Part shown: in pieces, positions 13,544 through 30,848 of the stretch
Numbering within the stretch: position 1 is the first letter of the stretch
Layout of the letters: every line of letters begins with the position of its first letter
Source: Phycisphaerae bacterium
GTDB lineage: Bacteria > Planctomycetota > Phycisphaerae > UBA1845
Length of the DNA stretch: 64,000 nt
Assembly (NCBI GenBank): GCA_035344155.1
Contig: DAORAL010000005.1
Coordinates: 38,465 to 102,464, forward strand
Reading direction: 5' to 3'
The notes under the pieces: generated by a model
Seen by the model: the letters and a program-made list of their open reading frames with translations, nothing else
The model's database searches: none
Told to the model about the DNA's origin: nothing
Position numbers and translations under genes: made by a program

Positions 13544-15319
13544 ATGTCGCCCGCGATGAGGAATGGAGCTTCGATGGACGCCGAAAACGGTACAACCATG
13601 TTTCCCGCGTTTGACCGGAAGTTCTTCGACTCCGATGAGGACTTCACCGTCATCGGCGGTGGCGAACTTGGCGGCAAGGCGCTGGGATTGGCCGCCGCAA
13701 AGCGCATCATCGCCGAGTCCGGACTGGCGAACGAATTCGCCGGATTGGATGTCAGCATTCCGCGGCTTACTGTTGTTGGCACCGATGTCTTTGAGCAGTT
13801 CATGACGCAGAACGGCCTGTACGAAATCGCCAGCGCCGACTCAACGGACGAGCGCATCGCGCATGCATTTCTTCAAGGCGAGCTACCTCCGTTGATCGTC
13901 GGCGACCTCCGCGCCCTGATCGCGCGTATCACGACACCGCTGGCAGTGCGCTCATCCAGTTTGTTGGAGGATGCGCTGAAGCACCCGTTCGCCGGCGTTT
14001 ACGCTACCAAGATGGTTCCGAACAACCAGGCTGCAATCAACGATCGATTCAAGAAGCTTGCCGAAGCAATCAAGTTTGTCTGGGCGTCCACTTTCTTTAA
14101 CGATGCCAGGTGCTACATGCGCACGATCGGGCATGATATCCGTGACGAACGCATGGCCGTCGTCATTCAGGAAGTCGTCGGCGAGCGCTTCAACGACCGG
14201 TTCTATCCGATTGTCTCTGGCGTCGTCCGCACGCACAATTTCTATCCGACCGGACCCGCCGGGCATGAGGACGGCGTAGCCAATCTGGCGCTTGGCCTGG
14301 GCAAGACAATTGTGGACGGCGGGGTGACCTGGACATACAGCCCAAGTTATCCGCGTCATGCCCCGCCGTACGCTTCGCCCCGTGATCTGCTGCAGAATAC
14401 TCAGACGCAGTTGTGGGCGGTGAACATGCAGCCCGCCCGCTATGATCCAATCAGTGAATCGGAATACTTGGTGCAGGTCGGACTCGACGATGCGGAGCGT
14501 GACGATGTGCTGCGCTATACCGCGTCGACCTATGATTCTCAGGCGGATCGCTTGGTGCTGGGGATCGGGCGCAAGGGACCGCGGGCGCTGACGTTTGGCC
14601 CGTTGCTCGAATTGGACGATGTGCCGCTGAACCCGTTGATTGAGCGAATGGCAAAGACGTGCAAGGACACGCTAGGGTGCGACGTTGAAATCGAATTCGC
14701 GATGACGCTGGACCGGCGTTCGGGTCTGCCTGCAAGGCTGGGTTTCTTGCAGGTCCGCCCAATGATGGTCGCAGACGAACAAATTGAAGTTAAGGAAACG
14801 GATTTGCACGACGAGCGGGCGCTCTTGGCCAGCGACCTTGTGTTGGGCAATGGCGAAAGCACATCCATTGTCGACCTGGTCTATGTCAAGCCGGTAGCGT
14901 TTGATCCGAAGTACACGAGGGTGATCGCCGCAGAGATTGAGAAGTTCAATACAACCCTGCTTGCGGAGCAACGCGACTATGCTCTGATTGGATTTGGTCG
15001 CTGGGGCAGCAGCGATCCGTGGCTTGGCATTCCGGTAACTTGGCCGCAGATTTCCGGCGCCCGCGTGATCGTCGAGGCAACCTTGCCCGATATGAACGTG
15101 GATGCGAGCCAGGGCTCGCACTTTTTCCACAACATGATCAGTTTTGGCGTGCAGTACTTTACCGTGCGGCACAGCAGTGGGTTCGCGATCAACTGGGACT
15201 GGCTTGATCGGCAACCGTCGACGGCGGAAACTGAATTGGTTCGACACGTGCGCCTGGACGCGCCGCTCACGGTTCGCGTGGATGGACGTCGCGGGCGGGG
15301 CGTCATTCTGCACGGATGA
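13544..15319 (+). CDS. PEP/pyruvate-binding (PPDK_N-type ATP-grasp) domain protein with an uncharacterised C-terminal domain
   Basis: GGGELGGKALGLA, LAVRSSSLLEDAL and EIEFAMTL...LGFLQVRPM are typical of the nucleotide-binding domain of PEP synthase/PPDK. No phosphohistidine swivel motif (TSHAA-type) is seen. The C-terminal domain carries GFGRWGSSDPWLG...SQGSHFFHN. Confidence 0.75.
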   Translation: MSPAMRNGASMDAENGTTMFPAFDRKFFDSDEDFTVIGGGELGGKALGLAAAKRIIAESGLANEFAGLDVSIPRLTVVGTDVFEQFMTQNGLYEIASADSTDERIAHAFLQGELPPLIVGDLRALIARITTPLAVRSSSLLEDALKHPFAGVYATKMVPNNQAAINDRFKKLAEAIKFVWASTFFNDARCYMRTIGHDIRDERMAVVIQEVVGERFNDRFYPIVSGVVRTHNFYPTGPAGHEDGVANLALGLGKTIVDGGVTWTYSPSYPRHAPPYASPRDLLQNTQTQLWAVNMQPARYDPISESEYLVQVGLDDAERDDVLRYTASTYDSQADRLVLGIGRKGPRALTFGPLLELDDVPLNPLIERMAKTCKDTLGCDVEIEFAMTLDRRSGLPARLGFLQVRPMMVADEQIEVKETDLHDERALLASDLVLGNGESTSIVDLVYVKPVAFDPKYTRVIAAEIEKFNTTLLAEQRDYALIGFGRWGSSDPWLGIPVTWPQISGARVIVEATLPDMNVDASQGSHFFHNMISFGVQYFTVRHSSGFAINWDWLDRQPSTAETELVRHVRLDAPLTVRVDGRRGRGVILHG

Positions 15320-18300
15320 TCGAAAGGGACCGGAGGCATTCCATGGCGGAACAAGACCAACGTGTCGCAGACATTCTTCGATCACTGCAAGAGCGTGCGA
15401 AAGAGTTAAACTGCCTCTACCGGGTCGAAGAAATTACGAACAATGAAAAAGCCTCGATGGACGAGGTGCTGCGCGGCGTCATCGAGGTGATTCCACCCGG
15501 TTGGCAGTATCCCAACATCTGCGCAGCCCGCATTCGCATCAACGCTACCGTTTACGTCTCAAGAAATTTCGGCGAATCGAATTGGTCGCAGATTGCGAAG
15601 ATCAAAGTCTATGGTGAACCGATTGGAACCATCGAGGTTGTCTATACGGACCAGATGCCCCAGGCGGATGAGGGTCCGTTTCTTAAGGAAGAGCGCAAAC
15701 TTCTAGAGACCATCGCCGATCGTATTGGGAGCTGCATCACGCATCGCCGCTTGGTCGAGACGATGCAGAGCATGCATGGTCTTGAGCAAGCGACTCCGCG
15801 CCGAGATCGTGAGTGGGGGGCAATTCTGGACCTGCTCAGACGAACCGATCAGAGCCTGCTCATGCGCGTCGCCCGCAAGATGATCAACCACCTCTGCTGG
15901 AGCGGTGTGCGTGATGCCGAACGCTTGTTGCAACGGTTTGGGCCGCAGCAGAGGTTCGACGAGCCGGACGTGTTCATCGAGTCCAACCAACCAAGACAGA
16001 AGAACGCAGCACCGCCGGCTACGGCGCTGGCGGATGAAGTTTTTGATCTTGCAGCCGCCAGTCTCAGCGACGACGAGATCATTTCCTGCGTTCACAAGTG
16101 GATCAAGCAAGACCGTGCCAGCTTTTTGGTCAACACGCTGGAGAATTACCACACAGCGATTTCAGAAGTTGCGGACGCCATTCAACGCTACCAGCATGCC
16201 GGGCATGGCGAAGTGGAACTTTCACACTCGACGCGGAAGGGGCTGCTCGTTGCATTGGTACGGCGATTTCTTTCCGACCAACTTGAGTACATCAACGTCG
16301 CCAAGAACTACGTCGAGATCAAGGATTTTCACCAATTGATTCGTCGGCTGATTTATCCAGCACGCGGTCACGGCAAAACCGGCGGTAAAGGGGCGGGTCT
16401 CTTCCTGGCGTACCAGATCGTTCAAACGCACAAGGATGAAGACAAGTTTCTCGCGGAGATCAAGACGCCAAAGACCTGGTATCTCACGTCGGACGGTATG
16501 CACGATTTTGTCTACTGCAATCATCTCGAAGACGTTTTCTCGCAGAAATACAAGGAGATCGACGAAGTACGCCAGGAATACCCTGACATCGTGCAGGTCT
16601 TTAAGAACTCGCAGTTCTCGGCGACGATCGTCAAAGGGTTGTCGCTCGCGCTCGATGATCTCGGTGACAAGCCGCTGATCGTGCGGAGTTCGAGTCTGCT
16701 TGAGGACCGCTTCGGCGCTGCTTTCTCCGGCAAGTACAAGAGTCTCTTTCTCGCCAATCGCGGTAGCAAGCAGGAACGTCTCGATGCCTTAATGGATGCA
16801 ATCGCAGAGGTTTACGCATCCACCTTTGGACCGGATCCAATTCAATATCGCGCCGAACGCAATCTCCTTGATTTCCAGGAAGGCATGGGGGTTCTCATCC
16901 AGGAAGTCGTGGGCGCGCGGGTGGGCGACTACTATTTGCCCGCCTTCGCCGGCGTCGCCTTCAGCCACAACGAATTTCGCTGGTCGCCGCGCATCAAACG
17001 CGAGGACGGACTTTTGCGACTCGTGCCCGGTTTGGGCACGCGCGCTGTGGATCGACTTGGAGACGACTACCCCGTGCTGGTGTCACCGGGCCAACCCGGT
17101 CTACGCGCCAACGCCACGCCGGAAGAAGTCATGCGCTACGCTCCGCGTTACCTCGATGTGATCAATCTCAACACCAACAAATTTGAAACGATAGGCGTGC
17201 GAGAGTTTCTGCAATCGGCAGGCGACGAACTGCCGGCCGCCGAAATGCTTGTCTCGATCTACGAAGAGAATCACCTGCGCCCGCCGCTGGTGGGCAGCAT
17301 CAATTTCGAGCGCGATGATTTGGTGGTGACGTTTGAAGGATTGCTCAACCGGACGCCGTTCATCAAGCAAATGCACGCGCTCCTTAGTCTATTGAAAAGA
17401 GAAGTCAAACACCCAGTTGATATCGAGTTCGCCTCTGATGGGAAGGACTTGTATCTTCTGCAGTGTCGTGCCCAAGCCCCTGCGAAATCCACGCGACCGG
17501 CGCCGATTCCTCGCGATATTTCTCATCAGCGACTGATATTCTCCGCCAATCGCTACGTCTCCAACGGGATCGTGCCCAACATCACCCACATCGTCTACGT
17601 CGACCCCGAGCGATATGGCCAACTTGCGACGAGAGAGGAAATGCTCGCGGTCGGCCGGGCTGTGGGCAGGCTCAATAAGCTGTTGCCAAAGCGGCAATTT
17701 GTTTTGATGGGACCCGGTAGGTGGGGGAGTCGCGGTGACGTCCGACTTGGCGTGTCGGTAACGTATTCGGACATCAACAACACCGCGATGCTCGTCGAGA
17801 TCGCGCGTCGAAGGGGCGATTATACGCCGGACGTATCGTTCGGAACACACTTCTTCCAGGATTTGGTGGAGTCTGAGATTCGCTATCTGCCTTTGTATCC
17901 GGATGATGACGACACGGAATTCAACGAGATCTTCCTGACGCGAAGTCCGAATCTTCTTGCAGAAATCGCTCCTGAGTTTGCAGGGCTTGCAGACACCGTC
18001 AAAGTGATCGACGTGCCGCAGACAGCCGATGGAAACGTGTTGTATGTATTGATGAATTCCGAGCTCGACGAAGCCGTCGGTGTGCTTAGCGAACCGACTT
18101 CTCCAGACAATTATTCGATGGACGTTGAGAAATCCTATATTACCCACGAGGGCGCCGATTGGCGTTGGCGAACGCGCATGGCCGAGAGTATCGCCGCCAA
18201 GCTCGACCCTGCGCGCTTCGGAATCAAGGGGCTCTATCTGATTGGAAGTACCAAGAACGCAACCGCCGGGCCAGCGAGCGACATTGACCTGATCGCACAC

Positions 18301-18531
18301 TTTGACGGAACCGACGAGCAACGTCGCGATCTGGAAAAGTGGTTCGAGGGTTGGAGTTTATCGCTGGCCGAAAGCAACTTTTTCAAAACGGGATACCGAA
18401 CCGAAGGCTTGCTTGATGTCCATTTCATCACGGACGAGGACATCGCCCGCGGTTCGAGCTACGCGATCAAGATAGGGGCGGTGACAGACGCGGCTCGCCC
18501 ACTCAAATTGTTAAACTCGGAGTCAACGTAG
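15316..18531 (+). CDS. multidomain protein: GAF-like sensor + PPDK_N-type ATP-grasp + shared C-domain + Pol-beta-type nucleotidyltransferase
   Basis: N-terminus LQERAKELNCLYRVEEI...EGPFLKEERKLLETIADRI is homologous to the kinase sensor. Also GGKGAGLFLA, LIVRSSSLLEDRFGAAFSGKYKS, DIEFASDGKDLYLLQCR and GPGRWGSRGDVRLG...SFGTHFFQD. C-terminal NTase motif is LIGSTKNATAGPASDIDLIAHF. ATGA overlap with the upstream paralog. Confidence 0.75.
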   Translation: MIERDRRHSMAEQDQRVADILRSLQERAKELNCLYRVEEITNNEKASMDEVLRGVIEVIPPGWQYPNICAARIRINATVYVSRNFGESNWSQIAKIKVYGEPIGTIEVVYTDQMPQADEGPFLKEERKLLETIADRIGSCITHRRLVETMQSMHGLEQATPRRDREWGAILDLLRRTDQSLLMRVARKMINHLCWSGVRDAERLLQRFGPQQRFDEPDVFIESNQPRQKNAAPPATALADEVFDLAAASLSDDEIISCVHKWIKQDRASFLVNTLENYHTAISEVADAIQRYQHAGHGEVELSHSTRKGLLVALVRRFLSDQLEYINVAKNYVEIKDFHQLIRRLIYPARGHGKTGGKGAGLFLAYQIVQTHKDEDKFLAEIKTPKTWYLTSDGMHDFVYCNHLEDVFSQKYKEIDEVRQEYPDIVQVFKNSQFSATIVKGLSLALDDLGDKPLIVRSSSLLEDRFGAAFSGKYKSLFLANRGSKQERLDALMDAIAEVYASTFGPDPIQYRAERNLLDFQEGMGVLIQEVVGARVGDYYLPAFAGVAFSHNEFRWSPRIKREDGLLRLVPGLGTRAVDRLGDDYPVLVSPGQPGLRANATPEEVMRYAPRYLDVINLNTNKFETIGVREFLQSAGDELPAAEMLVSIYEENHLRPPLVGSINFERDDLVVTFEGLLNRTPFIKQMHALLSLLKREVKHPVDIEFASDGKDLYLLQCRAQAPAKSTRPAPIPRDISHQRLIFSANRYVSNGIVPNITHIVYVDPERYGQLATREEMLAVGRAVGRLNKLLPKRQFVLMGPGRWGSRGDVRLGVSVTYSDINNTAMLVEIARRRGDYTPDVSFGTHFFQDLVESEIRYLPLYPDDDDTEFNEIFLTRSPNLLAEIAPEFAGLADTVKVIDVPQTADGNVLYVLMNSELDEAVGVLSEPTSPDNYSMDVEKSYITHEGADWRWRTRMAESIAAKLDPARFGIKGLYLIGSTKNATAGPASDIDLIAHFDGTDEQRRDLEKWFEGWSLSLAESNFFKTGYRTEGLLDVHFITDEDIARGSSYAIKIGAVTDAARPLKLLNSEST

Positions 18532-18541
18532 ATCGTTCAAA

Positions 18542-19417
18542 TCAGAGCAGGTCGCGCTTGGCTTCGCTGGGATTTGAAGGGTCGAACCGTACGAGCGCAA
18601 GTTCGGGCCCGTCATGGGCGGCTGAAAGGCACACCGTGTTTCCGATCCGGTCCTGCCATGCGCCGGTGAGTCGCGCCGATTCATGAATGTGGCCGTGGAG
18701 CGTCAGCAGCGGTTGTCGAGATTCGATGAAGCGACGAATCGCGATGCTTCCGACGTGAACATCGACGGGCACGTGATCGATCATTCGTCCGTCGAGTGCC
18801 GCGCGATCGAGTTTGGATTGATAAGGCGGCGCGTGAAAGAGCATGATTGCGCGGTCCATTTCGGCGTTGCCGGCAAGTTGCTCCAGATCGGCTTGAATGG
18901 TCGCGGCGCGTTCCGCACGCATGTCAACAGTCACCGTTCGCTGCCCCTGTTCTGGCGACAGGCAACCCGGATCGACGTATCGGGAAACATCATATCGCTC
19001 CCAGTCTTTGAGCAAAAAGGGCGTGGGTGATACATACGCATAGCCGTAAACAACATACGCCCCAAATTCGACGCGCCCTCCATGCACATATTCCCAAATA
19101 CCCTCTGACCCCGCATCGACAATCGCAGCCTCTTCTGACCGTGGATCGTCATTTCCCAGGATCACGAACACGCGAGGATAATCATCAGCAAGTTCCTGTC
19201 GCAGATCGCAGAGACGCTTGAACAGGTAATCGGTAAGAAAGTCATCGATCGGTCCCTGCTCGGTTGTGATGACGCTGAATTCGGATGGAAACAGGTCTCC
19301 GCCGAGAAACACCGCATGGGGACGCTCACAATCGATTGCGTCAAAGAGCTTCTCATAACGATCGACGCGACCATGAAGATCGGAAGCAAAAAAACAAAGA
19401 GCCGATTGAGATTCCAT
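18542..19417 (-). CDS. calcineurin-like metallophosphoesterase
   Basis: Motifs FFASDLHGR, LGGDLF, ILGNDD, FHAPP, GHIHE. Confidence 0.8.
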   Translation of the reverse strand: MESQSALCFFASDLHGRVDRYEKLFDAIDCERPHAVFLGGDLFPSEFSVITTEQGPIDDFLTDYLFKRLCDLRQELADDYPRVFVILGNDDPRSEEAAIVDAGSEGIWEYVHGGRVEFGAYVVYGYAYVSPTPFLLKDWERYDVSRYVDPGCLSPEQGQRTVTVDMRAERAATIQADLEQLAGNAEMDRAIMLFHAPPYQSKLDRAALDGRMIDHVPVDVHVGSIAIRRFIESRQPLLTLHGHIHESARLTGAWQDRIGNTVCLSAAHDGPELALVRFDPSNPSEAKRDLL

Positions 19418-19835: not shown

Positions 19836-20257
19836 ATGAATCTTCGATCTGGCGACGTGACGATCACTGGTGAAATCAGCGTGAACTCCGACGCGCGTCT
19901 CAAAAAGGGCATCGCCAGTATCGACGACGCCCGCGCACTGATTATCCGACTCGATGGAAGAACCTATCACTGGAAGGATAGAACTGGTCGCGATGACAAT
20001 CGACACGTCGGTCTGATCGCGCAAGAAGTGGAATCCGTCCTGCCCGATCTGGTCAGCGAATCAGCCGCCGGCATCAAGTCGGTGAACTACCAGGGGTTGG
20101 TGCCCGTTCTGATCAATGCCGTGAAAGAGCAGGACCAGACCATTCAAATCAAAGTCAGGACGATCAAATCGACGCACTCTGTGCCGCGAACAACGAACTT
20201 GCGAACCGGCTGGCCCGCATCGAGTCCATGCCGAACGCAAACGGAGGTGCAAAGTGA
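19836..20257 (+). pseudogene. remnant of a tail-fiber-type intramolecular chaperone (peptidase S74-like) domain; N-terminally orphaned and frameshifted
   Basis: SDARLKKGI...HVGLIAQEVESVLPDLV...VNYQGLVPVLINAVKEQ matches the S74 autoprocessing/chaperone pattern. Near 20140-20155 the expected coiled-coil tail (QSQDDQIDALCAANNELANRLARIESM..GAK*) continues in a different frame. No body of a fibre protein lies upstream. Confidence 0.55.
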
Positions 20258-20676
20258 AGACCCGAACGAAGTCGACGGTTCTCGCAGTGGCTGGCTTGCT
20301 GGTTTCTGGAGCGTTCGTCTCTGCCGGCGAATTGGACCTGCGTTGGCGCACGGTTGACAGCGGTGGCGGATACAGCGCCGGTGGCGAATTCGAAATCGAA
20401 GGCACAGCCGGACAGCCCGATGCAGGTGCGATGACCGGCGGAAGCTTTGCGCTTGCAGGTGGGTTCTGGTCCGCCGCGACGCAAAATGTGGCGATCCCCG
20501 GAGATTGCGATGGCGACGGTGAAGTGGACCTGGATGACCATGCCGACGTCATTGCATGCCTTTCAGGTCCGAGCGCGGGCGTGAATGCCGGTTGCGCCTG
20601 TTTCGACTTTGATCTGGAAGGTGACACCGACCTGCGCGACTTCGCCAATTTGCAAATGGTGTTCACTGGGAACTGA
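20254..20676 (+). CDS. small secreted protein (140 aa) with a GGFW-type N-domain and dockerin-like C-terminal tail
   Basis: GTG start overlaps the TGA of the upstream remnant (GTGA). Signal peptide KTRTKSTVLAVAGLLVSGAFVSA. Tail: DCDGDGEVDLDDHADVIACLSGP...CACFDFDLEGDTDLRDFANLQMVF. Confidence 0.6.
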   Translation: MKTRTKSTVLAVAGLLVSGAFVSAGELDLRWRTVDSGGGYSAGGEFEIEGTAGQPDAGAMTGGSFALAGGFWSAATQNVAIPGDCDGDGEVDLDDHADVIACLSGPSAGVNAGCACFDFDLEGDTDLRDFANLQMVFTGN

Positions 20677-20928: not shown

Positions 20929-21885
20929 TCAGCTAGTCGTTATCGACTTGTTCGCTCCGCCGATAGCGTGCAGTCTATCGGCGAACGAGATGATCATGTC
21001 GTGATGGCACAGCTTCTCATGCCATGTCTTAGGAATCGCGTCAATGCCGTAATACGCACCGGCCAGTTGTCCGAATACTGCGCCGGTCGTGTCGGCATCG
21101 TCACCGAGATTAACCGCCTTCAAGCAACCCTCTTCAAAACTGGTGCTGCTCCGAAATGCCCACAAAGCCGCTTCCAGTGATTGAACAACATAGCCCGTCC
21201 CGCGAATCTCCGGTGGTTCGCGATCCCAGAACGAACCGTTGGCGATCGTCTGGATTTCTTCGCAAAGCGGGTCGTCACTCCACGACGTGTCGAGAGCGAC
21301 GAAAGACGGTGAAAGCAGAATCTCCTTGGCGAGACCGGACAAAGCAGCACTTATCAGAAGCGCAAAATATCGGCAAGCATCGACAGCGGCAGTCGCGCCA
21401 TGTGTTGTACGTGAACTTGCCGCAGCCAATTCACATGCGTGGGCCGGCGTATCTGCAAACATCGGTATTGGGGCGAGCCGCATGATTGAACCGTTGCCCG
21501 CAGATCGCACGTCGGTCGGGCCGGAATACGGATCGCCTGATCGTTCAAAGGCAGCCAACGCTTTGCTGGTTGTGCCACCAATGTCGAAACATTCTCCGGT
21601 GCTGCTCATGTGGCCCTTTCGCCACCAACGCACGTATCGATTCATCTGGTCTGCGGGATCGAACTTCTTGCACTCGATAAGGCTTTCGGCGAGACACAGC
21701 GCCATCGATGTGTCGTCGGTCCATTGCCCGGGTTTGAGGTAGAAGGGGCCACCGCCAACCATGTCGATGATGGGTTTGAATGTGCCGGGCGGCATGAATT
21801 CCAGCGTCGTGCCAAGGGCGTCGCCAGCGGCGAGACCCAGAAGGCACCCGCGATATCGTTCCAGACTTGTGACCTGATGGGACAC
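20929..21885 (-). CDS. ADP-ribosylglycohydrolase family protein
   Basis: ERYRGCLLGLAAGDALGTTLEF, WTDDTSMALCLAES, GNGSIMR and GDDADTTGAVFGQLAGAYYG. Start reassigned to GTG 21885, preceded by AAGGAGA 6 nt upstream; the track start 21978 would overlap the upstream gene. Confidence 0.85.
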   Translation of the reverse strand: MSHQVTSLERYRGCLLGLAAGDALGTTLEFMPPGTFKPIIDMVGGGPFYLKPGQWTDDTSMALCLAESLIECKKFDPADQMNRYVRWWRKGHMSSTGECFDIGGTTSKALAAFERSGDPYSGPTDVRSAGNGSIMRLAPIPMFADTPAHACELAAASSRTTHGATAAVDACRYFALLISAALSGLAKEILLSPSFVALDTSWSDDPLCEEIQTIANGSFWDREPPEIRGTGYVVQSLEAALWAFRSSTSFEEGCLKAVNLGDDADTTGAVFGQLAGAYYGIDAIPKTWHEKLCHHDMIISFADRLHAIGGANKSITTS

Positions 21886-21908
21886 AGCAGTTCTCCTTGA
21901 GCTGGGGA

Positions 21909-22253
21909 TTATTTGTTTCGAAAGACGAAACGAATAAATCCTGACAGGAATGCCCCAGCCACGGCCAAGAGTCCCCACCAGAAAAAGCTTGGGGACTGTT
22001 TGGATAAATTGTCTGATGGCACGTCAACAGTGCGATTGTGCGCATGGTTGACGTTTACCAAGGTGGCGTTACCGACCGACTTGAGCCAGCGCCTTCCCGT
22101 CAAAGGGCTATAGAGGTGCCGTCCCTTCTTCAACTCGAAAATATTGGTGCATACGGCGCAGTCTCCCAGTAGCGCCCCCCAGGGAGGGCGCCCACACAAA
22201 CGACAATAGTTATTCTGCTGCCGTTCCTGGGGGGATTCCAGCATGGCTTCCAT
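21909..22253 (-). CDS. zinc-ribbon protein with C-terminal transmembrane helix (114 aa)
   Basis: CRLC-x12-CAVC zinc-ribbon motif and C-terminal TM helix FFWWGLLAVAGAFLSGFIRFVF. GAGGAG lies 7 nt upstream of the ATG. The gene sits between the exonuclease and ARH genes with 21-23 nt spacers. Confidence 0.5.
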   Translation of the reverse strand: MEAMLESPQERQQNNYCRLCGRPPWGALLGDCAVCTNIFELKKGRHLYSPLTGRRWLKSVGNATLVNVNHAHNRTVDVPSDNLSKQSPSFFWWGLLAVAGAFLSGFIRFVFRNK

Positions 22254-22274
22254 GTGATGGGTCTCCTCTGCGTT

Positions 22275-23174
22275 TCATGCGGCGGCTGGATCTGCAATCT
22301 CGACGATGCGGTCGAGGCGAAACGTTCTCATTTCTGCCGATTTTGTACAAAAGGCTTTGACGTAAACGTGACGGCCCGCGCTGAAGCACGTGAGCGGTCG
22401 AATCATGCGAAACGAAGATCGACCATCGCCATTCTCGTAGCGAATCGAAATCAACTGTCCGCTGGTAACGGCATCGTACAGCGGTCCCGGCAACGTCGTT
22501 TGGGGATGCGTGGGCCACTGCGGCTGGTAACGGTGCATGGATTGCAGGTCCGCTACGATTAAGCCCGCTTCACCCAACTCGCCAACCAACATTTTGAAGA
22601 CCTCTCGCGTGGCGACAGCATCGTCCAGCGCCCGATGCTTCGCGGGATGCATGATGCCCAACTCCGATGTGATCGTATCGAGCTTGTAATCGGGCAACTC
22701 CCAAGTCGCGGCGGCCAGCTGGCACGTATCGAGACAACCGGCTGGCTCCACACGAAATCCGGCGATCGCGAATTCCATCGAGAGAAAGCCAATGTCAAAC
22801 CGGATGTTGTGACCCACAAGCCAAGCGTTACCAAACAGTCCGCCAACGGTTTGGGCAACCGCTTCAAAGCGGGGAGCATTGGCAACATCGGCATCTGTGA
22901 TCCCATGGACGCTTCGAGCATCCCCTGGAATGGGCCGATCGGGGTTGATGAATTGGGACGCCTGGCGGGGCCTTTGGCCCGGTTCGCAGACGACCAGTCC
23001 CATTTCGACGATCCGATCTCCCATCGCAGGGGAGAGTCCGGTTGTTTCAACATCAACAAATACCAACTTGGCGTCTTTCAGTTGCATCAGCGCGCTCACA
23101 TCACACGAATTCACATGGTTTCGCCATACAGCATAAGGCCGCGGTATGACAGGATGGGTCGGACCAGTCCACAT
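22275..23174 (-). CDS. DEDDh (DnaQ/epsilon-like) 3'-5' exonuclease fused to a C-terminal WYL-like domain
   Basis: Exo I FVDVETTGL, Exo II LVGHNIRFDIGFL, Exo III HRALDDAVAT. C-terminus ISIRYENGDGRSSFRMIRPLTCFSAGRHVYVKAFCTKSAEMRTFRLDRIVEI. Alternative start at ATG 23087 (MQLKDAKLVFVDVE). Confidence 0.75.
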   Translation of the reverse strand: MWTGPTHPVIPRPYAVWRNHVNSCDVSALMQLKDAKLVFVDVETTGLSPAMGDRIVEMGLVVCEPGQRPRQASQFINPDRPIPGDARSVHGITDADVANAPRFEAVAQTVGGLFGNAWLVGHNIRFDIGFLSMEFAIAGFRVEPAGCLDTCQLAAATWELPDYKLDTITSELGIMHPAKHRALDDAVATREVFKMLVGELGEAGLIVADLQSMHRYQPQWPTHPQTTLPGPLYDAVTSGQLISIRYENGDGRSSFRMIRPLTCFSAGRHVYVKAFCTKSAEMRTFRLDRIVEIADPAAA

Positions 23175-23235
23175 GATGCAAAAATCTTGCTAGAATCGGT
23201 TCAATCAATTGTTTTCAACTTACGGAAAACCCATC

Positions 23236-24261
23236 ATGGCTCGCGGCGAACTCATTCTTCGGCAATGGAACCTGCTAAAAATGCTGCAAACGCGCGGTGA
23301 GGGCATCGCCTTGCGCGACATTGCCGTCGAACTGGACGTCAGCGAACGTACCGTGCAGCGTGATTTCGAAGTGTTGCAGGAGTTGGGGTTCCCGATCGAT
23401 TTCGAGGAGGATGAATACGGCAAGCGTTTCTGGCGATTGCCGGCGGACTTTTTCCGCAGTGGTCCGCTCGTACTCGGGATCACCGAGTCTGTTTCGCTGC
23501 ACCTGGCTGAGAGAATGCTTGATCCACTTGGAGGCACGATTTTCGCCGAGGGATTGCAATCGGTCTTGGACAAGATTCGAAGCCTCGTTCCCGCCAAAGC
23601 GCTCGATTATTTTGCGGATCTGGACAGCACCGTGCACGTGCGACGCATGGGCAAAGTCGATTACTCCAGACATGCTGACACGATCCGGCTTGTGTTGGAC
23701 GCAGCCCGCAAAGAGTTGACTGTCGAGATCACCTATCGATCGCTTTGGCGCAAGGAAGCCTACGAAACACGATTCGATCCGTATGGATTGGTATTGTTTG
23801 ATGGCGATCTCTTCATTCTGGGGCGGTCGCATCGGGCGGATGGAATGCGTATCTTAAAGATCGCCCGCATCGCATCCGTCATCCCAACGGCAGAGGCATT
23901 CGAGAAACCGGCGGATTTTGTGTTGGCCGATCACTTCCGAGCCAGTTTTGGAATCGTGCACACCGGTGATGAACCGGTCGAGGTCGTGGCCAAGTTCACG
24001 GGTTCAACGGCGGTCCTGGTCAGTGAACGTGAGTGGCACGAGAGTCAGCAACTGGCTTGGTTGGATGCCGAAGCCACGCTCTTCGACGAGGTGCCCGACG
24101 AACCGGATGCGGTACTGGCGACGTTTCAGTTGGGCAACACGGTCGAGTTCAAACGCTGGATCAAGGGGCTTGGTGCAGAGGCGGAAGTGGTTCGTCCCGA
24201 TTGGCTCCGCCGAGAAGTCCGAGACGAGCTACTGAAAGCCGTCCGCCGTCACGAAGATTGA
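23236..24261 (+). CDS. HTH-WYL-WCX transcriptional regulator (YafY/PafBC/BrxR/CapW architecture)
   Basis: N-terminal HTH LRQWNLLKMLQTRGEGIALRDIAVELDVSERTVQRDFEVLQELGFPI. WYL core VEITYRSLWRKEAYETRFDPYGLVLFDGDLFILG. C-terminal extension domain. Divergent from the exonuclease gene. Confidence 0.8.
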   Translation: MARGELILRQWNLLKMLQTRGEGIALRDIAVELDVSERTVQRDFEVLQELGFPIDFEEDEYGKRFWRLPADFFRSGPLVLGITESVSLHLAERMLDPLGGTIFAEGLQSVLDKIRSLVPAKALDYFADLDSTVHVRRMGKVDYSRHADTIRLVLDAARKELTVEITYRSLWRKEAYETRFDPYGLVLFDGDLFILGRSHRADGMRILKIARIASVIPTAEAFEKPADFVLADHFRASFGIVHTGDEPVEVVAKFTGSTAVLVSEREWHESQQLAWLDAEATLFDEVPDEPDAVLATFQLGNTVEFKRWIKGLGAEAEVVRPDWLRREVRDELLKAVRRHED

Positions 24262-24536
24262 CCACTGCCCGACACCGCCACACCTGCAACCCTAACAAAC
24301 CCACCAAATTCAAAAAACTTTCGTTGAATCAAGCCGTTCTGCAAGTGGCAATTCTCGCTCAACCGGTGATTTACGGAACCCCCGACACGATCTGTCGGAC
24401 CCCGTGCATGTTAGGTACGACCTGACGTGACAGTCTTCTCCGTCAGATTTCTTGCGTAGCAACGTGCAGGTTGGGGATGGGTGGCATCACCGCCACTTTC
24501 GTGTTCAGTTTGAAGAAGCAATGCCTGGAGGTGACG

Positions 24537-25181
24537 ATGTCTGCAGATGGTTCCCGAGTGTTTGTTGTCGACGAAGATGCAACGGCGCGAGATTCGCTCG
24601 TTCGCCTGTTGGAGTCAGCCGGATTCAAGACTGAATCATACGCCCATGTTTGCGGGTTTCTTAAATGTGCCAAGATGTCGGGTGGTGCGTGTGCGTTGAT
24701 TGCACTGCGCGTGCCGGAATGCAATGGTCATGGAATGCTAAACCAAATCATCGAACAGTCGCCGCAATTGCCGGTGATCGTGGTGAGCGAACATGGTGAC
24801 GTGCGCACTGCCGTCAAGGCGATTAAGAGTGGTGCCTGGGATTTCATTGAAAAACCGATCGATAAAAATGCGGTTCTCGAGAGCGTACGCAGTGCGATCA
24901 CCGATTCCGCGGGTGGTCGTCGCCGCGTGCGTGCGCTTGAAGAATTCAAGGGGGCGATCAAGACGCTAACTCGGCGAGAATTGGAGGTCTATGAACTGGT
25001 CATCGCCGGAAAAACGAGTCTGGAAATTGCAAAACGGCTTTATATTTCAACTCGGACCGTCTCAGCCCATCGCGCCAGCATCAAGGCAAAGACCGGCATC
25101 GCGAGCGCGGCTCAGCTCATTCGACTTGGCCTCCAGACACGGGACAGCGCTTTGAACCAACACGATCTCCGCGTGCCTTAG
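24537..25181 (+). CDS. FixJ/LuxR-family response regulator (REC + LuxR HTH)
   Basis: GGAGG lies 5 nt before ATG 24537. REC domain RVFVVDEDATARDSL...; HTH LTRRELEVYELVIAGKTSLEIAKRLYISTRTVSAHRASIKAKTG. Confidence 0.85.
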   Translation: MSADGSRVFVVDEDATARDSLVRLLESAGFKTESYAHVCGFLKCAKMSGGACALIALRVPECNGHGMLNQIIEQSPQLPVIVVSEHGDVRTAVKAIKSGAWDFIEKPIDKNAVLESVRSAITDSAGGRRRVRALEEFKGAIKTLTRRELEVYELVIAGKTSLEIAKRLYISTRTVSAHRASIKAKTGIASAAQLIRLGLQTRDSALNQHDLRVP

Positions 25182-25364: not shown

Positions 25365-25988
25365 CTAATTGTTTATTTGCACACTCAAGCGAATGAGTTG
25401 CGCCACACTTGTGATGCCGGTCTTTGCCTTGATGCTGGCGCGATGTGCTGAGACGGTCCGGGTCGAGATGCACAGATGCTTTGCGATTTCCGGACTGGTC
25501 ATGCCGGCGACGACGAGTTGGTACACTTCGTACTCGCGACGGGTCAGTCCACTGATCGACGACTTGAATTTTTGAATCGCGGACGTGGAATGACGGCCGT
25601 CTACAAACTCTGCGATCGCGCTTCGCACCGCCTTGATGATGACCCGGTCGTCAAAGGGTTTTTCGATAAAGTCCCAAGCGCCGTGCTTGATTGACTTGAC
25701 CGCTGTTTGAATGTCGCCATGACCACTGATCATGATAACTGGTAATTGCGGGTGCCGCTTTACCGTTTTGCGCAAGAGTTCAAGTCCGCCTGTTTCGGGC
25801 ATGCGGACATCAAACAGCGCGCATTCGCCAGATCGTACCTCTGCATTTTTCAAAAAGTCTTTGGCGCATGCGAAGGGCTGTGTGTTAAAACCTTCCGCGC
25901 CCAAGAGCCAGACCAGTGAATCGCGAACGGCAGCATCGTCATCGACAATATATACTCGGGGTTTGGTTGCCGACATTAGGGCCTCCAT
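25365..25988 (-). CDS. FixJ/LuxR-family response regulator (paralog of 24537-25181)
   Basis: REC domain RVYIVDDDAAVRDSL...DVRMPETGG; HTH LTRREYEVYQLVVAGMTSPEIAKHLCISTRTVSAHRASIKAKTG. Lies 3 nt downstream of the PAS kinase gene. Confidence 0.85.
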   Translation of the reverse strand: MEALMSATKPRVYIVDDDAAVRDSLVWLLGAEGFNTQPFACAKDFLKNAEVRSGECALFDVRMPETGGLELLRKTVKRHPQLPVIMISGHGDIQTAVKSIKHGAWDFIEKPFDDRVIIKAVRSAIAEFVDGRHSTSAIQKFKSSISGLTRREYEVYQLVVAGMTSPEIAKHLCISTRTVSAHRASIKAKTGITSVAQLIRLSVQINN

Positions 25989-28747: not shown

Positions 28748-30000
28748 GGCATCACTCTCTGATCACCCTCGGGACTCGTTCACGCCCTCCAAGGAATCTT
28801 GGACGAAGGAAATGCTGACCACTTGGCAGACGACCTTTCCCAATTCAGAAAACTGGGCGTTCGGAAAGGCCACGTGGCAAGTATCGTCACGGCAGCATGT
28901 GCATTCTCCCGGCTTCAAGTCGCGCAAGTGAAGCCTGCGCCCAACAATACATCATGCGTAATCTGTGCGTGCCCACCGCAAACATAAAAAGGGAAAAAGT
29001 TAAAGCGGACAACATTGCCGCCACAGCGCATTTCACGAGGGTGGACATCATGATGTGACAACTGCATAACGGTTTATGATCCCACTATGGCACCGGCCAT
29101 GCAAACCTTATTGAATACCTCGAAACTATTCTGCGGGCATATCCCCGCAATTGCGTCATGAGTATCGCACTGGGCGCCATTGGTCTGGAGGTCGTGTTGT
29201 CAGACACCTCATGCATCCGCGGCTCGAATCTCCACACAACAACTAGCCAGGCAGGATACACTTTGAAAGCCTGGCCGCGAATTGAAAGATCGTGTGATTG
29301 CAGGTCGACGCCTTCGTGCCGCAGGATGTCCATATGGCACACTCGCTTTGATATCAAGTGCTCAGAATCTGCGCTTGTTATTAAATAGCAAAGTCGGGCC
29401 AACGCAACCGGCATGGCGGATTCGAAAATCTCGCATGGTGGATTCTCATACAAGCAAAATTAGGTAATTGTACCAATAGGCGCATTCGGTTGGCTTCCGT
29501 TAGAATTCGCCGTACTGTGGCGGTCTACCGCTTGTCCGCTGCAGCGCTCAATGCTCAATACTGAGTTCTTGAGTCATATCACCCAGCTGGTCGGCAGGGA
29601 ATCGCATTCAGGGCATCAATTGATGCCGTCGCATTGTGTGGAACCTGGGGTTTATTGAACGCGGCTCTCAAGGCGTTCGGATTCGACAATTGCGCTCGTG
29701 CTGTATGGGCCACGCATAATACTGCTGAAGGCAGAAAAAGAAATAGGCAGGGCGTCGCAAATTCGCGTAGGCCGCCGTAAGTGCAGATGGGCTGAGGCAA
29801 TGTCAGTATGCAACAGCCATTAACGCTTGCTTGAACTGGGCTGCGAGTGTGACGTGGGCACGTCGAAAGTATGAGACACGTGTTTCGCGGTACGCGATGC
29901 TCGTTGGATTTCGGCATTTCTACCGGAGTCGTGCAAGTCTACTCTCTCCTCACGGGATGGAGGTGGGGAGTTTCCGGGCGCGTGCTTTACGCCCAATTTC

Positions 30001-30035
30001 GGCCAGGCCACTGGGTCCTCCTACTTGGCCTGGCC
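30001..30035. other. perfect 10-bp inverted repeat (hairpin) in a long non-coding region
   Basis: GGCCAGGCCA, a 15-nt loop, then TGGCCTGGCC. No flanking T-tract. Confidence 0.5.
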
Positions 30036-30291
30036 GTCTAAACGAAACTCGGGAGCGGTTGTGATGGTTCCTGAGATTGGCAGCAACAATAGATGTGCTT
30101 GCGTTAGATGGGCTTGTGTCTAAGGCCTAGGTTTTGATCGAGCTTTTCCAAGGAGGGTCGCTCGTTGTCTTTATTCAGCGACTTCAATCGCATGGCTCCG
30201 ATCGATCGGCCTCGATGAGGCTCACTTGACGAGGTCTTGCGGGGCTATGGACGCCTTGGCTGATGGTTAAGCCAAAGGTTCAGCCGGTGAA

Positions 30292-30371
30292 AGCAACAGC
30301 AGGATTGAGCAGCAGGCCAGAATAGCAGCAGGCCAGAGTAACAGCAGGAGTAATTAACAGTAAGAGCACGC
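30292..30371. repeat. five tandem, progressively degenerate 16-nt units (core AGCAGCAGG)
   Basis: Units: AGCAACAGCAGGATTG / AGCAGCAGGCCAGAAT / AGCAGCAGGCCAGAGT / AACAGCAGGAGTAATT / AACAGTAAGAGCACGC. Located ~480 nt upstream of the first island gene. Confidence 0.7.
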
Positions 30372-30848
30372 GACGGGAAAAATGCAGACCGGTCAGTCCG
30401 CATTGGATAGGTACGAGGCTGACCAGTCTGCGGGATTCGGGGTGTTATACCCCGTCAGTATTCTAGATTCTACGAATTCGTCGGCAGAATCGTCAAGGCC
30501 CAATGCCGATCGGACGGGGAATGTTTGCGCTGATTTCGGCGCCGCTCCTCGGCTGTGGCTGGTGCCTCCCCCGAATCCTTATCTTGATTGGTTCCACGAA
30601 GGTTTGTGTCTCGACCTATGTGCAGGTTTGTCGGCAGGCAAGCATGAGAATCGCTTGCGCGTTAAGCGTAAGGCAGTGTTCTCTAATTTTGTATGTCTGC
30701 TTGTGTGACAGGTCGTTGTCGTCGGATTTTCTCTCGGTAGTTGGCTCCGGCGATCGCTAAGCAAACCGCACGTTAAACGATGGGCAGACCACACTTTGGG
30801 CCATGGGTTCCAGAAAATGCACGACCGATAACAAACGCGAGGTACAAA

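Follow-up and report, generated by a model that had tools for sequence, protein, structure and literature searches.

The transcription activator DriD governs an SOS-independent response of Caulobacter crescentus to DNA damage and has the domain order winged helix-turn-helix (wHTH)-3HB-WYL-WCX. DriD is reported to contact single-stranded DNA (ssDNA) through Y168, R178, R189, Y192, R204, W206, and R207, and its operator follows the consensus ATACGAC(N7)GTCGTAT, with CGAC-N7-GTCG as the core (PMC10853764). In Caulobacter, the promoters under DriD control have no -35 consensus; the -35 position is overlapped by the box, which keeps a single fixed distance to the -10 element, and DriD, which lies in a bidirectional promoter, activates the divergent operon and not itself (PMC13004042). 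Here, we report a locus of similar design in a Phycisphaerae bacterium (GCA_035344155.1, contig DAORAL010000005.1). It occupies positions 20929-24261 of a stretch of 64,000 nt (38,465 to 102,464 of the contig), which was analyzed as a whole and is called the window below. The listing of open reading frames (ORFs) and our reading of the sequence give three minus-strand genes, led by an exonuclease with a WYL domain of its own, and one divergent plus-strand gene for a DriD-like regulator that we call REG (Table 1). To our knowledge, DriD-type regulation has been characterized only in Caulobacter and its alphaproteobacterial relatives. We propose that the locus is a DriD-type, ssDNA-sensing transcription activation cassette of Phycisphaerae/Planctomycetota, and we put the probability of this reading at about 0.68.

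PafBC of actinobacteria is another ssDNA-activated WYL activator. It acts at the -35 position of RecA-NDp promoters, is a heterodimer or a fusion of two WYL proteins, and binds its non-palindromic site only with RNA polymerase (RNAP). CapW and BrxR are repressors of CBASS, BREX, and defense islands. They are homodimers of the wHTH-WYL-WCX type with palindromic operators, and CapW binds ssDNA and is then released from double-stranded DNA (PMC11662680). In planctomycetes, Iyer, Burroughs, Anantharaman, and Aravind predicted systems centered on ADP-ribosylglycohydrolases (ARG) with WYL- or Nudix-HTH regulators, as well as pairs of ARPP and a WYL regulator, with ARPP, phosphatases, and restriction endonucleases as variable modules (Iyer et al., 2022; PMC9503650, section 3.8). 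According to that work, a coupled phosphatase (rhodanese-type, calcineurin-like, HD, or HAD) is found in around 55% of ARG systems, and ARPP is likened to the SRAP domain, which cross-links to sugars, and is paired with the 3'-end-binding HIRAN domain. The SRAP and HIRAN links would suit both DNA lesions and phage defense as a context.

Operator and promoters

The intergenic region between REG and the exonuclease gene measures 148 bp. The initial annotation, made from the sequence before this analysis, had placed the regulator about 60 bp away; the distance changes because the exonuclease start moves to ATG 23087 and REG starts at ATG 23236 (MARGELILRQWNLL, kept in relatives) and not at TTG 23209. 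ATG 23087 is most likely the exonuclease start, rather than ATG 23174 of the long ORF, since homologs of around 265-280 aa have an N-terminus matching it (MQLKDAK) and since the conserved operator and -10 hexamer fall inside the 5' extension of the long ORF.

This region carries the palindrome CCGAC-N7-GTCGG, and an alignment of eight intergenic sequences showed that its G.CCGAC and TGTC columns are invariant. Among loci of the clade (Planctomycetota with an exonuclease at least 50% identical), the box was found 42-74 nt upstream of the exonuclease start in 12/12 loci scanned, including loci that have no adjacent REG. In all 12 exonuclease promoters, a NAnnnT hexamer lies exactly 10 nt past the half-site of the box. 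The intergenic sequence of the relative L180, which was read separately, also carries the box upstream of the exonuclease. These target promoters have no recognizable -35 element. The operator core, the box over the -35 position, and the gap to the -10 are the same as in DriD: from the promoter sequences in PMC13004042, we computed the same 10-nt distance between half-site and -10 for didA (CAAGGT) and CCNA_03891 (CAATCT). The bidirectional layout with a divergent operon as target is common to both as well. The outer bases differ, being ATA/TAT with an A+T-rich spacer in DriD and CC/GG with a G+C-rich spacer here. The RecA-NDp motif, which we take to be TGTCGG-N10-TAnnnT, equals the right half of the present box in half-site and spacing. 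The initial annotation had proposed that the divergent WYL regulator controls the operon, and the conserved operator makes such control probable.

A second promoter of this kind lies around 120 nt past the REG stop codon. It consists of box A (CCGACACGATCTGTCGG, 24382-24398), which is a perfect 17-mer, and box B (ACGACCTGACGTGACAG, 24417-24433), followed after 10 nt by the -10-like hexamer CAGATT (24444-24449). The layout of box A, box B, 10 nt, and NAnnnT downstream of REG was present in 8/8 loci, regardless of the next gene. In the window, L085, and L092, this gene encodes a LuxR-type regulator; in L180 and L089, it is a type I-C cas3, and in L175 and L081, it encodes ARPP-1, alone or behind a 64-aa gene. 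Such a conserved tandem-box promoter immediately 3' of the regulator gene is unlike DriD. REG itself has a sigma-70-like promoter, found by promoter scan, whose -10 corresponds to another motif, which reads ATTCTAGCA on the opposite strand. We read this motif as common to the relatives; it is not marked as conserved in the eight-locus alignment.

Two other matches in the window were set aside. A perfect CCGAC-N7-GTCGG 17-mer at 17742-17758 lies within a 1071-aa PPDK_N/nucleotidyltransferase gene, has no hexamer in register, and is probably due to chance. A perfect CGAC-N7-GTCG core at 21381-21395 (minus strand), followed after 10 nt by TATTTT, lies inside the hydrolase coding sequence and is also taken as chance (around 0.23 expected per window).

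The regulator REG

Pfam profiles identify HTH_11 (residues 18-64), HTH_PafC, WYL (158-224), and WCX (255-344) in REG, the domain architecture of DriD. The best sequence match among Protein Data Bank (PDB) entries is DriD itself (9pfq/8tp8) over the full length, although at E 5e-5 and 26 bits this similarity to a protein of another phylum is weak and short of establishing orthology. PafBC comes second. Unlike PafBC, REG is one protein of 341 aa, and its box is palindromic. The same search gave no match of REG to chains of BrxR or CapW at E<0.01, and PADLOC matched generic WYL models only, so that REG was not assigned to the BrxR or CapW family, with which the initial annotation had compared it. 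At the sequence level, REG is thus closest to DriD and not to BrxR or CapW, and for this reason ssDNA and DNA damage are indicated as its signal.

The residues that would read the operator point in the same direction. R38 and T39 of REG correspond to the base-reading pair R37 and T38 of DriD and are invariant in 27 family members; Y167, R205, and K208, the equivalents of some DriD contact residues, are also invariant. The REG family comprises 236 clusters. The best 120 of them are all at least 56% identical to REG and mostly around 341 aa long, and the named clusters among these 120 belong to Phycisphaerae or Planctomycetota.

An exonuclease with its own WYL domain

The operon opens with a gene whose protein has Pfam matches to RNase_T (2.3e-30) and WYL (2.4e-12; 47 bits against a cutoff of 21.8 bits). 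The motifs quoted in the initial annotation (VDVETTG, GHNIRFD, HRALDDA, and ISIRYENG...RTFRLDRIVEI) are all present. The DEDDh residues D12 and E14 (Exo I, DxE), D98 (Exo II, D), and H151 and D156 (Exo III, Hx4D) are invariant in the family. An AlphaFold (AF2) model with a predicted local distance difference test score (pLDDT) of 93.7 matched, as a whole, DinG-exo, the CRISPR DnaQ domain, Pol III epsilon, ExoX, ExoI, and TREX1/2, with a probability of 1.00 for DinG-exo, epsilon, ExoX, and TREX.

The C-terminal domain was also modeled alone (residues 190-270; AF2 pLDDT 88). Its top 30 Foldseek matches in the PDB are all WYL domains, from BrxR, PafBC, CapW, and DriD (TM-score 0.61-0.74), and the best superposition is with BrxR (0.73). 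The predicted structure therefore confirms the WYL fold, an Sm-like beta-barrel preceded by a helix, that the initial annotation had assigned to this domain. In a pairwise BLASTP comparison, this domain is 33% identical to the WYL segment of DriD over 64 residues (E 2e-9). The DriD residues that contact ssDNA have as their equivalents Y217, R227, R239, Y242, R254, F256, and R257, which are invariant or nearly so throughout the family.

The combination of RNase_T and WYL is widespread (1205 homologs), and the closest named protein comes from a metagenome-assembled genome of Phycisphaerales. We found nothing specific in the literature on such a protein, just a statement in general terms that fusions of WYL domains and exonucleases occur. 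PADLOC matched its exonuclease domain alone to PDC-S48 (residues 38-227 to profile positions 7-195 of 411); as this is not a full-length match, membership of PDC-S48 was rejected. In one relative, the protein P0005 (L085:6001-7182) is an in-frame fusion of exonuclease-WYL to the zinc-ribbon membrane protein, seen in two independent assemblies.

Proposed mechanism

In the reading that we favor, REG would be made from its own sigma-70-like promoter. Its WYL domain would bind ssDNA that arises from DNA damage, or from invading or degraded DNA, and the REG dimer would then bind the CGAC-N7-GTCG boxes. At two promoters that face outward, these would stand in for the -35 element, and both promoters would be activated by REG. 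From the left promoter, the exonuclease-WYL gene would be transcribed first and a variable cargo after it, which here consists of the zinc-ribbon protein and a Tri1/DraG-like hydrolase. The right promoter would drive an aspartate-less LuxR-type regulator here, and cas3 or ARPP-1 in relatives. The exonuclease-WYL protein would be a 3'-5' DEDDh nuclease held on ssDNA by its WYL domain, most likely trimming or destroying 3'-ended ssDNA. Its action would serve repair and would also remove the inducer; this would amount to a negative feedback, because ssDNA would also be the inducer. The DriD regulon likewise includes recJ, for an exonuclease that acts on ssDNA, and didA, for a membrane protein of small size. 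The conserved target here differs in being an exonuclease with a WYL domain of its own, accompanied by a cargo that is variable and often consists of defense genes.

The model builds on what was observed, namely the domains, a conserved operator, the geometry of the promoters, the joint conservation of REG and the exonuclease, and a cargo that varies. Sequence, predicted structures, and the published work on DriD are the grounds on which we infer activation rather than repression, the ssDNA ligand, the nuclease substrate, the feedback loop, and what the small protein and the hydrolase do.

We also put forward, tentatively, the idea of a portable and self-limiting induction cassette, in which ssDNA might switch on any cargo inserted to the left or right (in the window and relatives, type I-C CRISPR-Cas, McrBC, ubiquitin-like/MotAB-like systems, ARH/ARPP modules, and secondary regulators, among others), while the WYL-tethered exonuclease destroys the inducer and resets the switch. 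If true, such a cassette would do for ssDNA what ring nucleases do in terminating cyclic-oligoadenylate signaling, and it would link the DNA-damage world of DriD and PafBC to the defense-regulation world of CapW and BrxR. A model in which one WYL protein senses the ssDNA signal and a second one consumes it can be tested directly. The cassette shows how one DNA-damage or ssDNA signal could serve cargo as diverse as CRISPR-Cas, McrBC, and ADP-ribose-removing enzymes, which bears on the open question of how costly defense systems stay silent until needed. It also gives a concrete regulatory context to ARG and ARPP systems so far predicted by comparative genomics only. More generally, the presence of the DriD operator core and register in Planctomycetota suggests that activation by a box that replaces the -35 element is old and widespread.

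Conserved unit and variable cargo

Scans of genomes and metagenomes with exonuclease-WYL alignments gave matches that, among those listed, rest mostly on the generic DVETTGL motif and are almost all distant (around 35% identity); they were used as an out-group and contributed no clade context. Contexts of the clade were found by exact-protein look-up, which gave 14 distinct contexts including the window. The regulator is divergent from the exonuclease in 10/14. The zinc-ribbon gene is present in five of the 14, all of them with an exonuclease of 63% identity or more, and the hydrolase in four (window, L180, L174, and L091). ARPP-1 adjoins the regulator in 3/14 and is seen as a remnant in one more context. 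Counting this remnant (L087), ARH (ADP-ribosylglycohydrolase) or ARPP-1 is found in 8/14 contexts and neither in 6/14. The identity of REG to the window protein declines with that of the exonuclease (90/74, 87/87, 82/69, 66/54, 61/52, and 55/50 percent). All three operon genes occur together in two contexts only, the window and L180. Because the members of this triad vary among contexts, the conserved unit is the regulator, the operator, and the exonuclease-WYL gene; the cargo is variable, and the triad is not a unit. The co-conservation of exonuclease-WYL, zinc-ribbon, and hydrolase genes that was expected in the initial annotation is therefore not borne out, and its interpretation stands in part: the domains, the operon, and control by the regulator are supported, a dedicated triad is not.

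L180 is the closest relative with a known context, its exonuclease being 87% and its hydrolase 73% identical. There, three genes of unnamed cargo families separate the zinc-ribbon gene from the hydrolase gene, and the window operon looks like a reduced version of this arrangement. In other relatives, the slot behind the exonuclease is taken by McrB-McrC, by a set of YukD, MotA-ExbB, ExbD, ThiF, JAB, and FHA genes, by Nmad2, or by Nmad3 with Mrr. The hydrolases of the clade fall into two lineages that are around 29% identical to each other, and the recurrence of both behind the exonuclease suggests selection for the pairing. Together with ARPP-1 elsewhere, it ties the cassette, in which the hydrolase would be cargo, to the ARG-centered systems.

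Four unnamed families, of around 50, 220, 339, and 103 aa, recur in the slot. The first is a very basic peptide (MSIGK..GRRIGRRAAGK..) encoded right after the zinc-ribbon or exonuclease gene in five relatives, and not in the window. The family of around 220 aa, for which Pfam gave no match, shares an R-x4-H motif (LYxMRxQVxHGAST) that recalls HEPN and stands just upstream of the hydrolase in L174 and L180. On the regulator side, ARPP-1 (PF20208, 4.5e-84) recurs in L081-L086 and L175/L176, the remnant being at L087:5440-5652; no locus among the clade contexts has so far shown both ARPP-1 and the hydrolase.

Defense genes adjoining the cassette in relatives include type I-C cas genes, McrBC, type I restriction-modification, AIPR/NERD, and HipBA. 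In L180 and L089, the tandem boxes (within L180:4740-4900 and L089:4560-4705) face a type I-C cas3-cas5-csd1(-cas7) operon, with cas3 at L180:2472-4736 and L089:1846-4110. This suggests that the type I-C interference genes of these two loci may be inducible by ssDNA or damage. In the window, PADLOC and the scanned ORFs gave no recognized defense system adjoining REG, and PADLOC gave no system-level match and no system that takes in the hydrolase or the small protein. There are no BREX or CBASS genes in the window itself.

Distant members of the exonuclease-WYL family (around 30-39% identical) come from Chloroflexota, Zixibacteria, and other phyla. In a Pfam census, their neighbors were housekeeping genes (Peptidase_S51, RNase HII, Fpg, and TPR), with no WYL regulator, hydrolase, or zinc-ribbon gene among them. 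A tblastn search with the window proteins against 80 distant loci gave no zinc-ribbon or regulator match and one unrelated hydrolase. With such neighbors, a defense link for the whole exonuclease-WYL family was rejected. In plasmid and viral collections, the relatives have the exonuclease domain only, save one full-length match of 28% identity in the viral set (L191), and there is no sign in these collections that phages or plasmids carry the cassette of the clade. Near-identical sequences are present in activated-sludge and wastewater metagenomes.

As far as we found, the DriD box and its register in Planctomycetota, an exonuclease-WYL protein as conserved target, and a variable-cargo cassette with two outward promoters are undescribed. 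Iyer et al. (2022; PMC9503650) had earlier predicted that ADP-ribosylglycohydrolases pair with WYL regulators, without mention of an exonuclease-WYL partner; the view of the initial annotation that the gene combination is undescribed is to be qualified accordingly.

Weighing the alternatives

Several observations weigh against a DriD-type activation cassette. The match between REG and DriD is the weak one given above, and a box over the -35 position could be used equally by a repressor of the CapW or BrxR type. In the 64 kb, sites composed of a box and a hexamer are no commoner than in shuffled sequence (5 vs 6.1), and a scan for the 17-mer with at most two mismatches was not enriched over shuffled sequence either; since neither scan shows a wider regulon, none can be claimed beyond the two promoters. 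The box is absent upstream of distant exonuclease-WYL genes (2/62 vs 6/62 in the control), so its link to the exonuclease is specific to the clade. Because the flanks of the relatives are rich in defense genes, the trigger could be phage and not genotoxic stress. Finally, Iyer et al. (2022; PMC9503650) propose an ADP-ribose-derived ligand for the WYL regulators of ARG systems and call these regulators negative.

Part of this evidence would suit a repressor that works like CapW and BrxR, with REG blocking both outward promoters in unstressed cells until a ligand sets it free and so lifts the repression of the exonuclease operon and of the cargo downstream. Like those proteins, REG has the wHTH-WYL-WCX architecture and a palindromic operator, the boxes overlap the core promoter, and release by ssDNA is known for CapW. 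Moreover, BrxR and CapW occur in defense settings such as those of the relatives of REG, with CRISPR-Cas I-C, McrBC, type I restriction-modification, and AIPR/NERD. The promoter geometry, however, is that of an activator. The -35 element is missing, the spacing from box to -10 equals that of DriD-activated promoters, and the strict 10-nt register holds in 20/20 promoters, as docking of an activator with RNAP requires and simple occlusion does not. These two features, the missing -35 and the register, lead us to favor activation, and the failure of BrxR and CapW chains to match REG argues in the same direction, so that we hold repression to be unlikely. An ARG-centered system of the kind described for planctomycetes is compatible with the DriD-type reading as regards the cargo and differs from it on the ligand and the core. 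Here, the hydrolase would strip from host macromolecules the ADP-ribose transferred by an invader's enzyme, the WYL regulator would sense a ligand derived from ADP-ribose or nucleosides, and the exonuclease would be an accessory effector. The hydrolase and the WYL-HTH regulator do form one divergent unit, no transferase was detected among the window ORFs scanned, the hydrolase is Tri1-like with intact catalytic motifs, ARPP modules and ARPP + WYL-regulator pairs occur in relatives, and more than half of the contexts hold ARH or ARPP-1. A calcineurin-like phosphoesterase gene (Metallophos, 18542-19417) also lies around 1.5 kb downstream on the strand of the hydrolase; plus-strand ORFs lie between, which makes it a separate transcription unit, and the hydrolase is neither fused to a phosphatase nor transcribed together with one. 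Against such a system, the conserved leader gene is the exonuclease and not the hydrolase, six contexts lack both ARH and ARPP-1, and the operator, the promoter geometry, and the closest solved relative of REG are those of the ssDNA sensor DriD, which points to the DriD mode. We consider it not very probable as a full account.

The initial annotation had seen in the three genes a dedicated and undescribed stress or anti-phage system that couples 3'-5' trimming to the removal of ADP-ribose. The tight operon, an RNA contig across the junction of genes 2 and 3, the recurrence of hydrolases from two lineages behind the exonuclease, and the fusion of zinc-ribbon and exonuclease in P0005 speak for it. 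On the other hand, the hydrolase is absent from 10/14 contexts and the zinc-ribbon gene from 9/14, one of the two complete cases has three extra genes in between, the same slot may hold McrBC, Ub-like/MotAB-like genes, Nmad2, or Nmad3, the wider family has housekeeping neighbors, and PADLOC recognized no system with the hydrolase or the small protein. This makes a dedicated triad quite improbable. A CRISPR-associated DEDDh exonuclease that trims prespacers during adaptation, together with a CRISPR-associated WYL regulator, appears very improbable indeed. PADLOC models for CRISPR-associated DEDDh (2e-36) and WYL do match, but they are generic domain models. The fold and sequence matches include Cas2-DEDDh and the DnaQ domain of S. 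thermophilus CRISPR, and REG adjoins cas3-cas5-csd1 in L089 and L180, with boxes upstream of cas3. Yet these are the only two contexts with cas genes, which lie on the regulator side rather than within the operon of the exonuclease; the scanned ORFs of the window gave no cas gene, and the exonuclease is neither fused to nor beside cas1 or cas2, as it would be in a Cas2-DEDDh-type arrangement. We therefore retain the DriD-type cassette as the best explanation.

Genes of the operon and the window

The coordinates of the features are given in Table 1. The spacers of 21 and 23 nt agree with the 21-23 nt of the initial annotation, and its domain calls (RNase_T exonuclease, WYL, ADP_ribosyl_GH, and HTH-WYL-WCX) all hold with Pfam profiles. 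The three minus-strand genes are one operon. In a wastewater metatranscriptome, one contig bridges the junction between the zinc-ribbon and hydrolase genes and another lies within the exonuclease gene, which is consistent with low-level co-transcription.

Table 1. Position and main attributes of the features described (positions are those of the window, or of the relative named)
Feature	Position	Strand	Remarks
ADP-ribosylglycohydrolase (ARH)	20929..21885	-	318 aa; GTG start; operon gene 3, the last
Zinc-ribbon tail-anchored membrane protein	21909..22253	-	114 aa; operon gene 2
DEDDh 3'-5' exonuclease with C-terminal WYL domain	22275..23087	-	270 aa; operon gene 1
-10-like hexamer of the exonuclease promoter	23130..23135	-	TATGCT; exactly 10 nt past the operator half-site
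DriD-type operator (predicted)	23146..23162		minus-strand reading CCGACCCATCCTGTCAT; covers the -35 position of the exonuclease promoter
Sigma-70-like promoter of REG	23168..23196	+	TCCACA, 17-nt spacer, TG-extended TAGAAT
HTH-WYL-WCX regulator REG, DriD-like	23236..24261	+	341 aa
Second DriD-box promoter, 3' of REG	24382..24449	+	boxes A and B and hexamer
LuxR-type response regulator RR1	24537..25181	+	214 aa from ATG 24537; GGAGG Shine-Dalgarno upstream
50-aa basic peptide	L081:7185-7337; L085:7185-7337; L090:6823-6975; L087:7225-7371; L180:7348-7497		no Pfam match
Cargo family of around 220 aa	L180:9674-10336; L174:6816-7451; L085:7340-8002; L081:10861-11550

The cysteines C17, C20, C32, and C35 of the small protein, as well as its LYxPxTG motif, are invariant in six members. 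Their spacing is CxxC-x11-CxxC and not CxxC-x12-CxxC, as first annotated. The C-terminal transmembrane helix described at that stage is confirmed by a hydrophobic tail with a Kyte-Doolittle maximum of 1.76 over 19 residues from residue 93 (93-111). Of the two Shine-Dalgarno sequences reported, AAGGAGA does lie 6 nt before GTG 21885 of the hydrolase gene, while GAGGAG lies 9 nt and not 7 nt before ATG 22253 of the small-protein gene. The family forms 17 representative clusters among 1.84 billion proteins and has no convincing Pfam family; a match to RcnB (E 0.014) was below the cutoff and was rejected. Small membrane proteins induced by DNA damage are division inhibitors in several bacteria, DidA of the DriD regulon being one of them. 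A role of the tail-anchored protein as a DidA-like division inhibitor is, by analogy, a lead rather than a finding.

The hydrolase matches Pfam ADP_ribosyl_GH at 4.6e-84 over profile positions 1-286 of 287. Its best PDB matches, both aligned over the full length, are the ARH of T. thermophilus (2cwc, 1e-78) and Tri1 (6dre, 8e-70), and the metal-binding and catalytic motifs GDALG, WTDDTS, GNGS, THG, and GDDADTTG are intact. The NCBIfam model of Tri1 (NF041672) gave 309.5 bits, under its cutoff of 490, over profile positions 63-358 only, so an assignment as Tri1 equivalog was rejected; the DraG model gave 157 bits. Judged by its sequence, the protein is an intact Tri1/DraG-like ADP-ribosylhydrolase which differs from Tri1 in having no N-terminal extension. 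No Tre1-like toxin, type VI secretion system gene, or DraT is found near it, and, in line with the initial annotation, no ADP-ribosyltransferase was detected among the window ORFs scanned.

RR1, the cargo of the second promoter, has the Pfam domains Response_reg and GerE. Its receiver domain lacks the phospho-acceptor aspartate and has an alanine instead; the paralog at 25365-25988 has the aspartate, and the L085 ortholog (L085:3927-4538, minus strand) has a glycine. RR1 is 61% identical to this gene, found at the same position in L085, and 57% identical to the neighboring canonical regulator, which is itself paired with a PAS histidine kinase. From its sequence, RR1 looks like a phosphorylation-independent regulator controlled via its expression level.

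The rest of the window, as far as its ORFs were scanned, has the genes of an ordinary chromosome, namely those for NorB, glutamate dehydrogenase, two-component systems, PPDK-like kinases, and surface proteins of large size. The G+C content of the region shows no anomaly, and a terminator scan gave results at chance level, which were not used. Around 2 kb (28750-30780) between a PAS histidine kinase and a 1305-aa LTD/HYR surface protein hold no ORF longer than around 120 aa. Between the hydrolase and the phosphoesterase, two short overlapping plus-strand ORFs (19836-20676) are possibly gene remnants. One has a Peptidase_S74 domain (endosialidase chaperone, tail-fiber type); for the second, a weak dockerin-like match falls short of the Pfam cutoff. 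Two adjacent PPDK_N-type genes (phosphoenolpyruvate/pyruvate-binding, kinase-like) lie in the segment 13544-19417; the second of them (15316-18531) has a terminal nucleotidyltransferase domain, and the calcineurin-like phosphoesterase gene follows them in convergent orientation.

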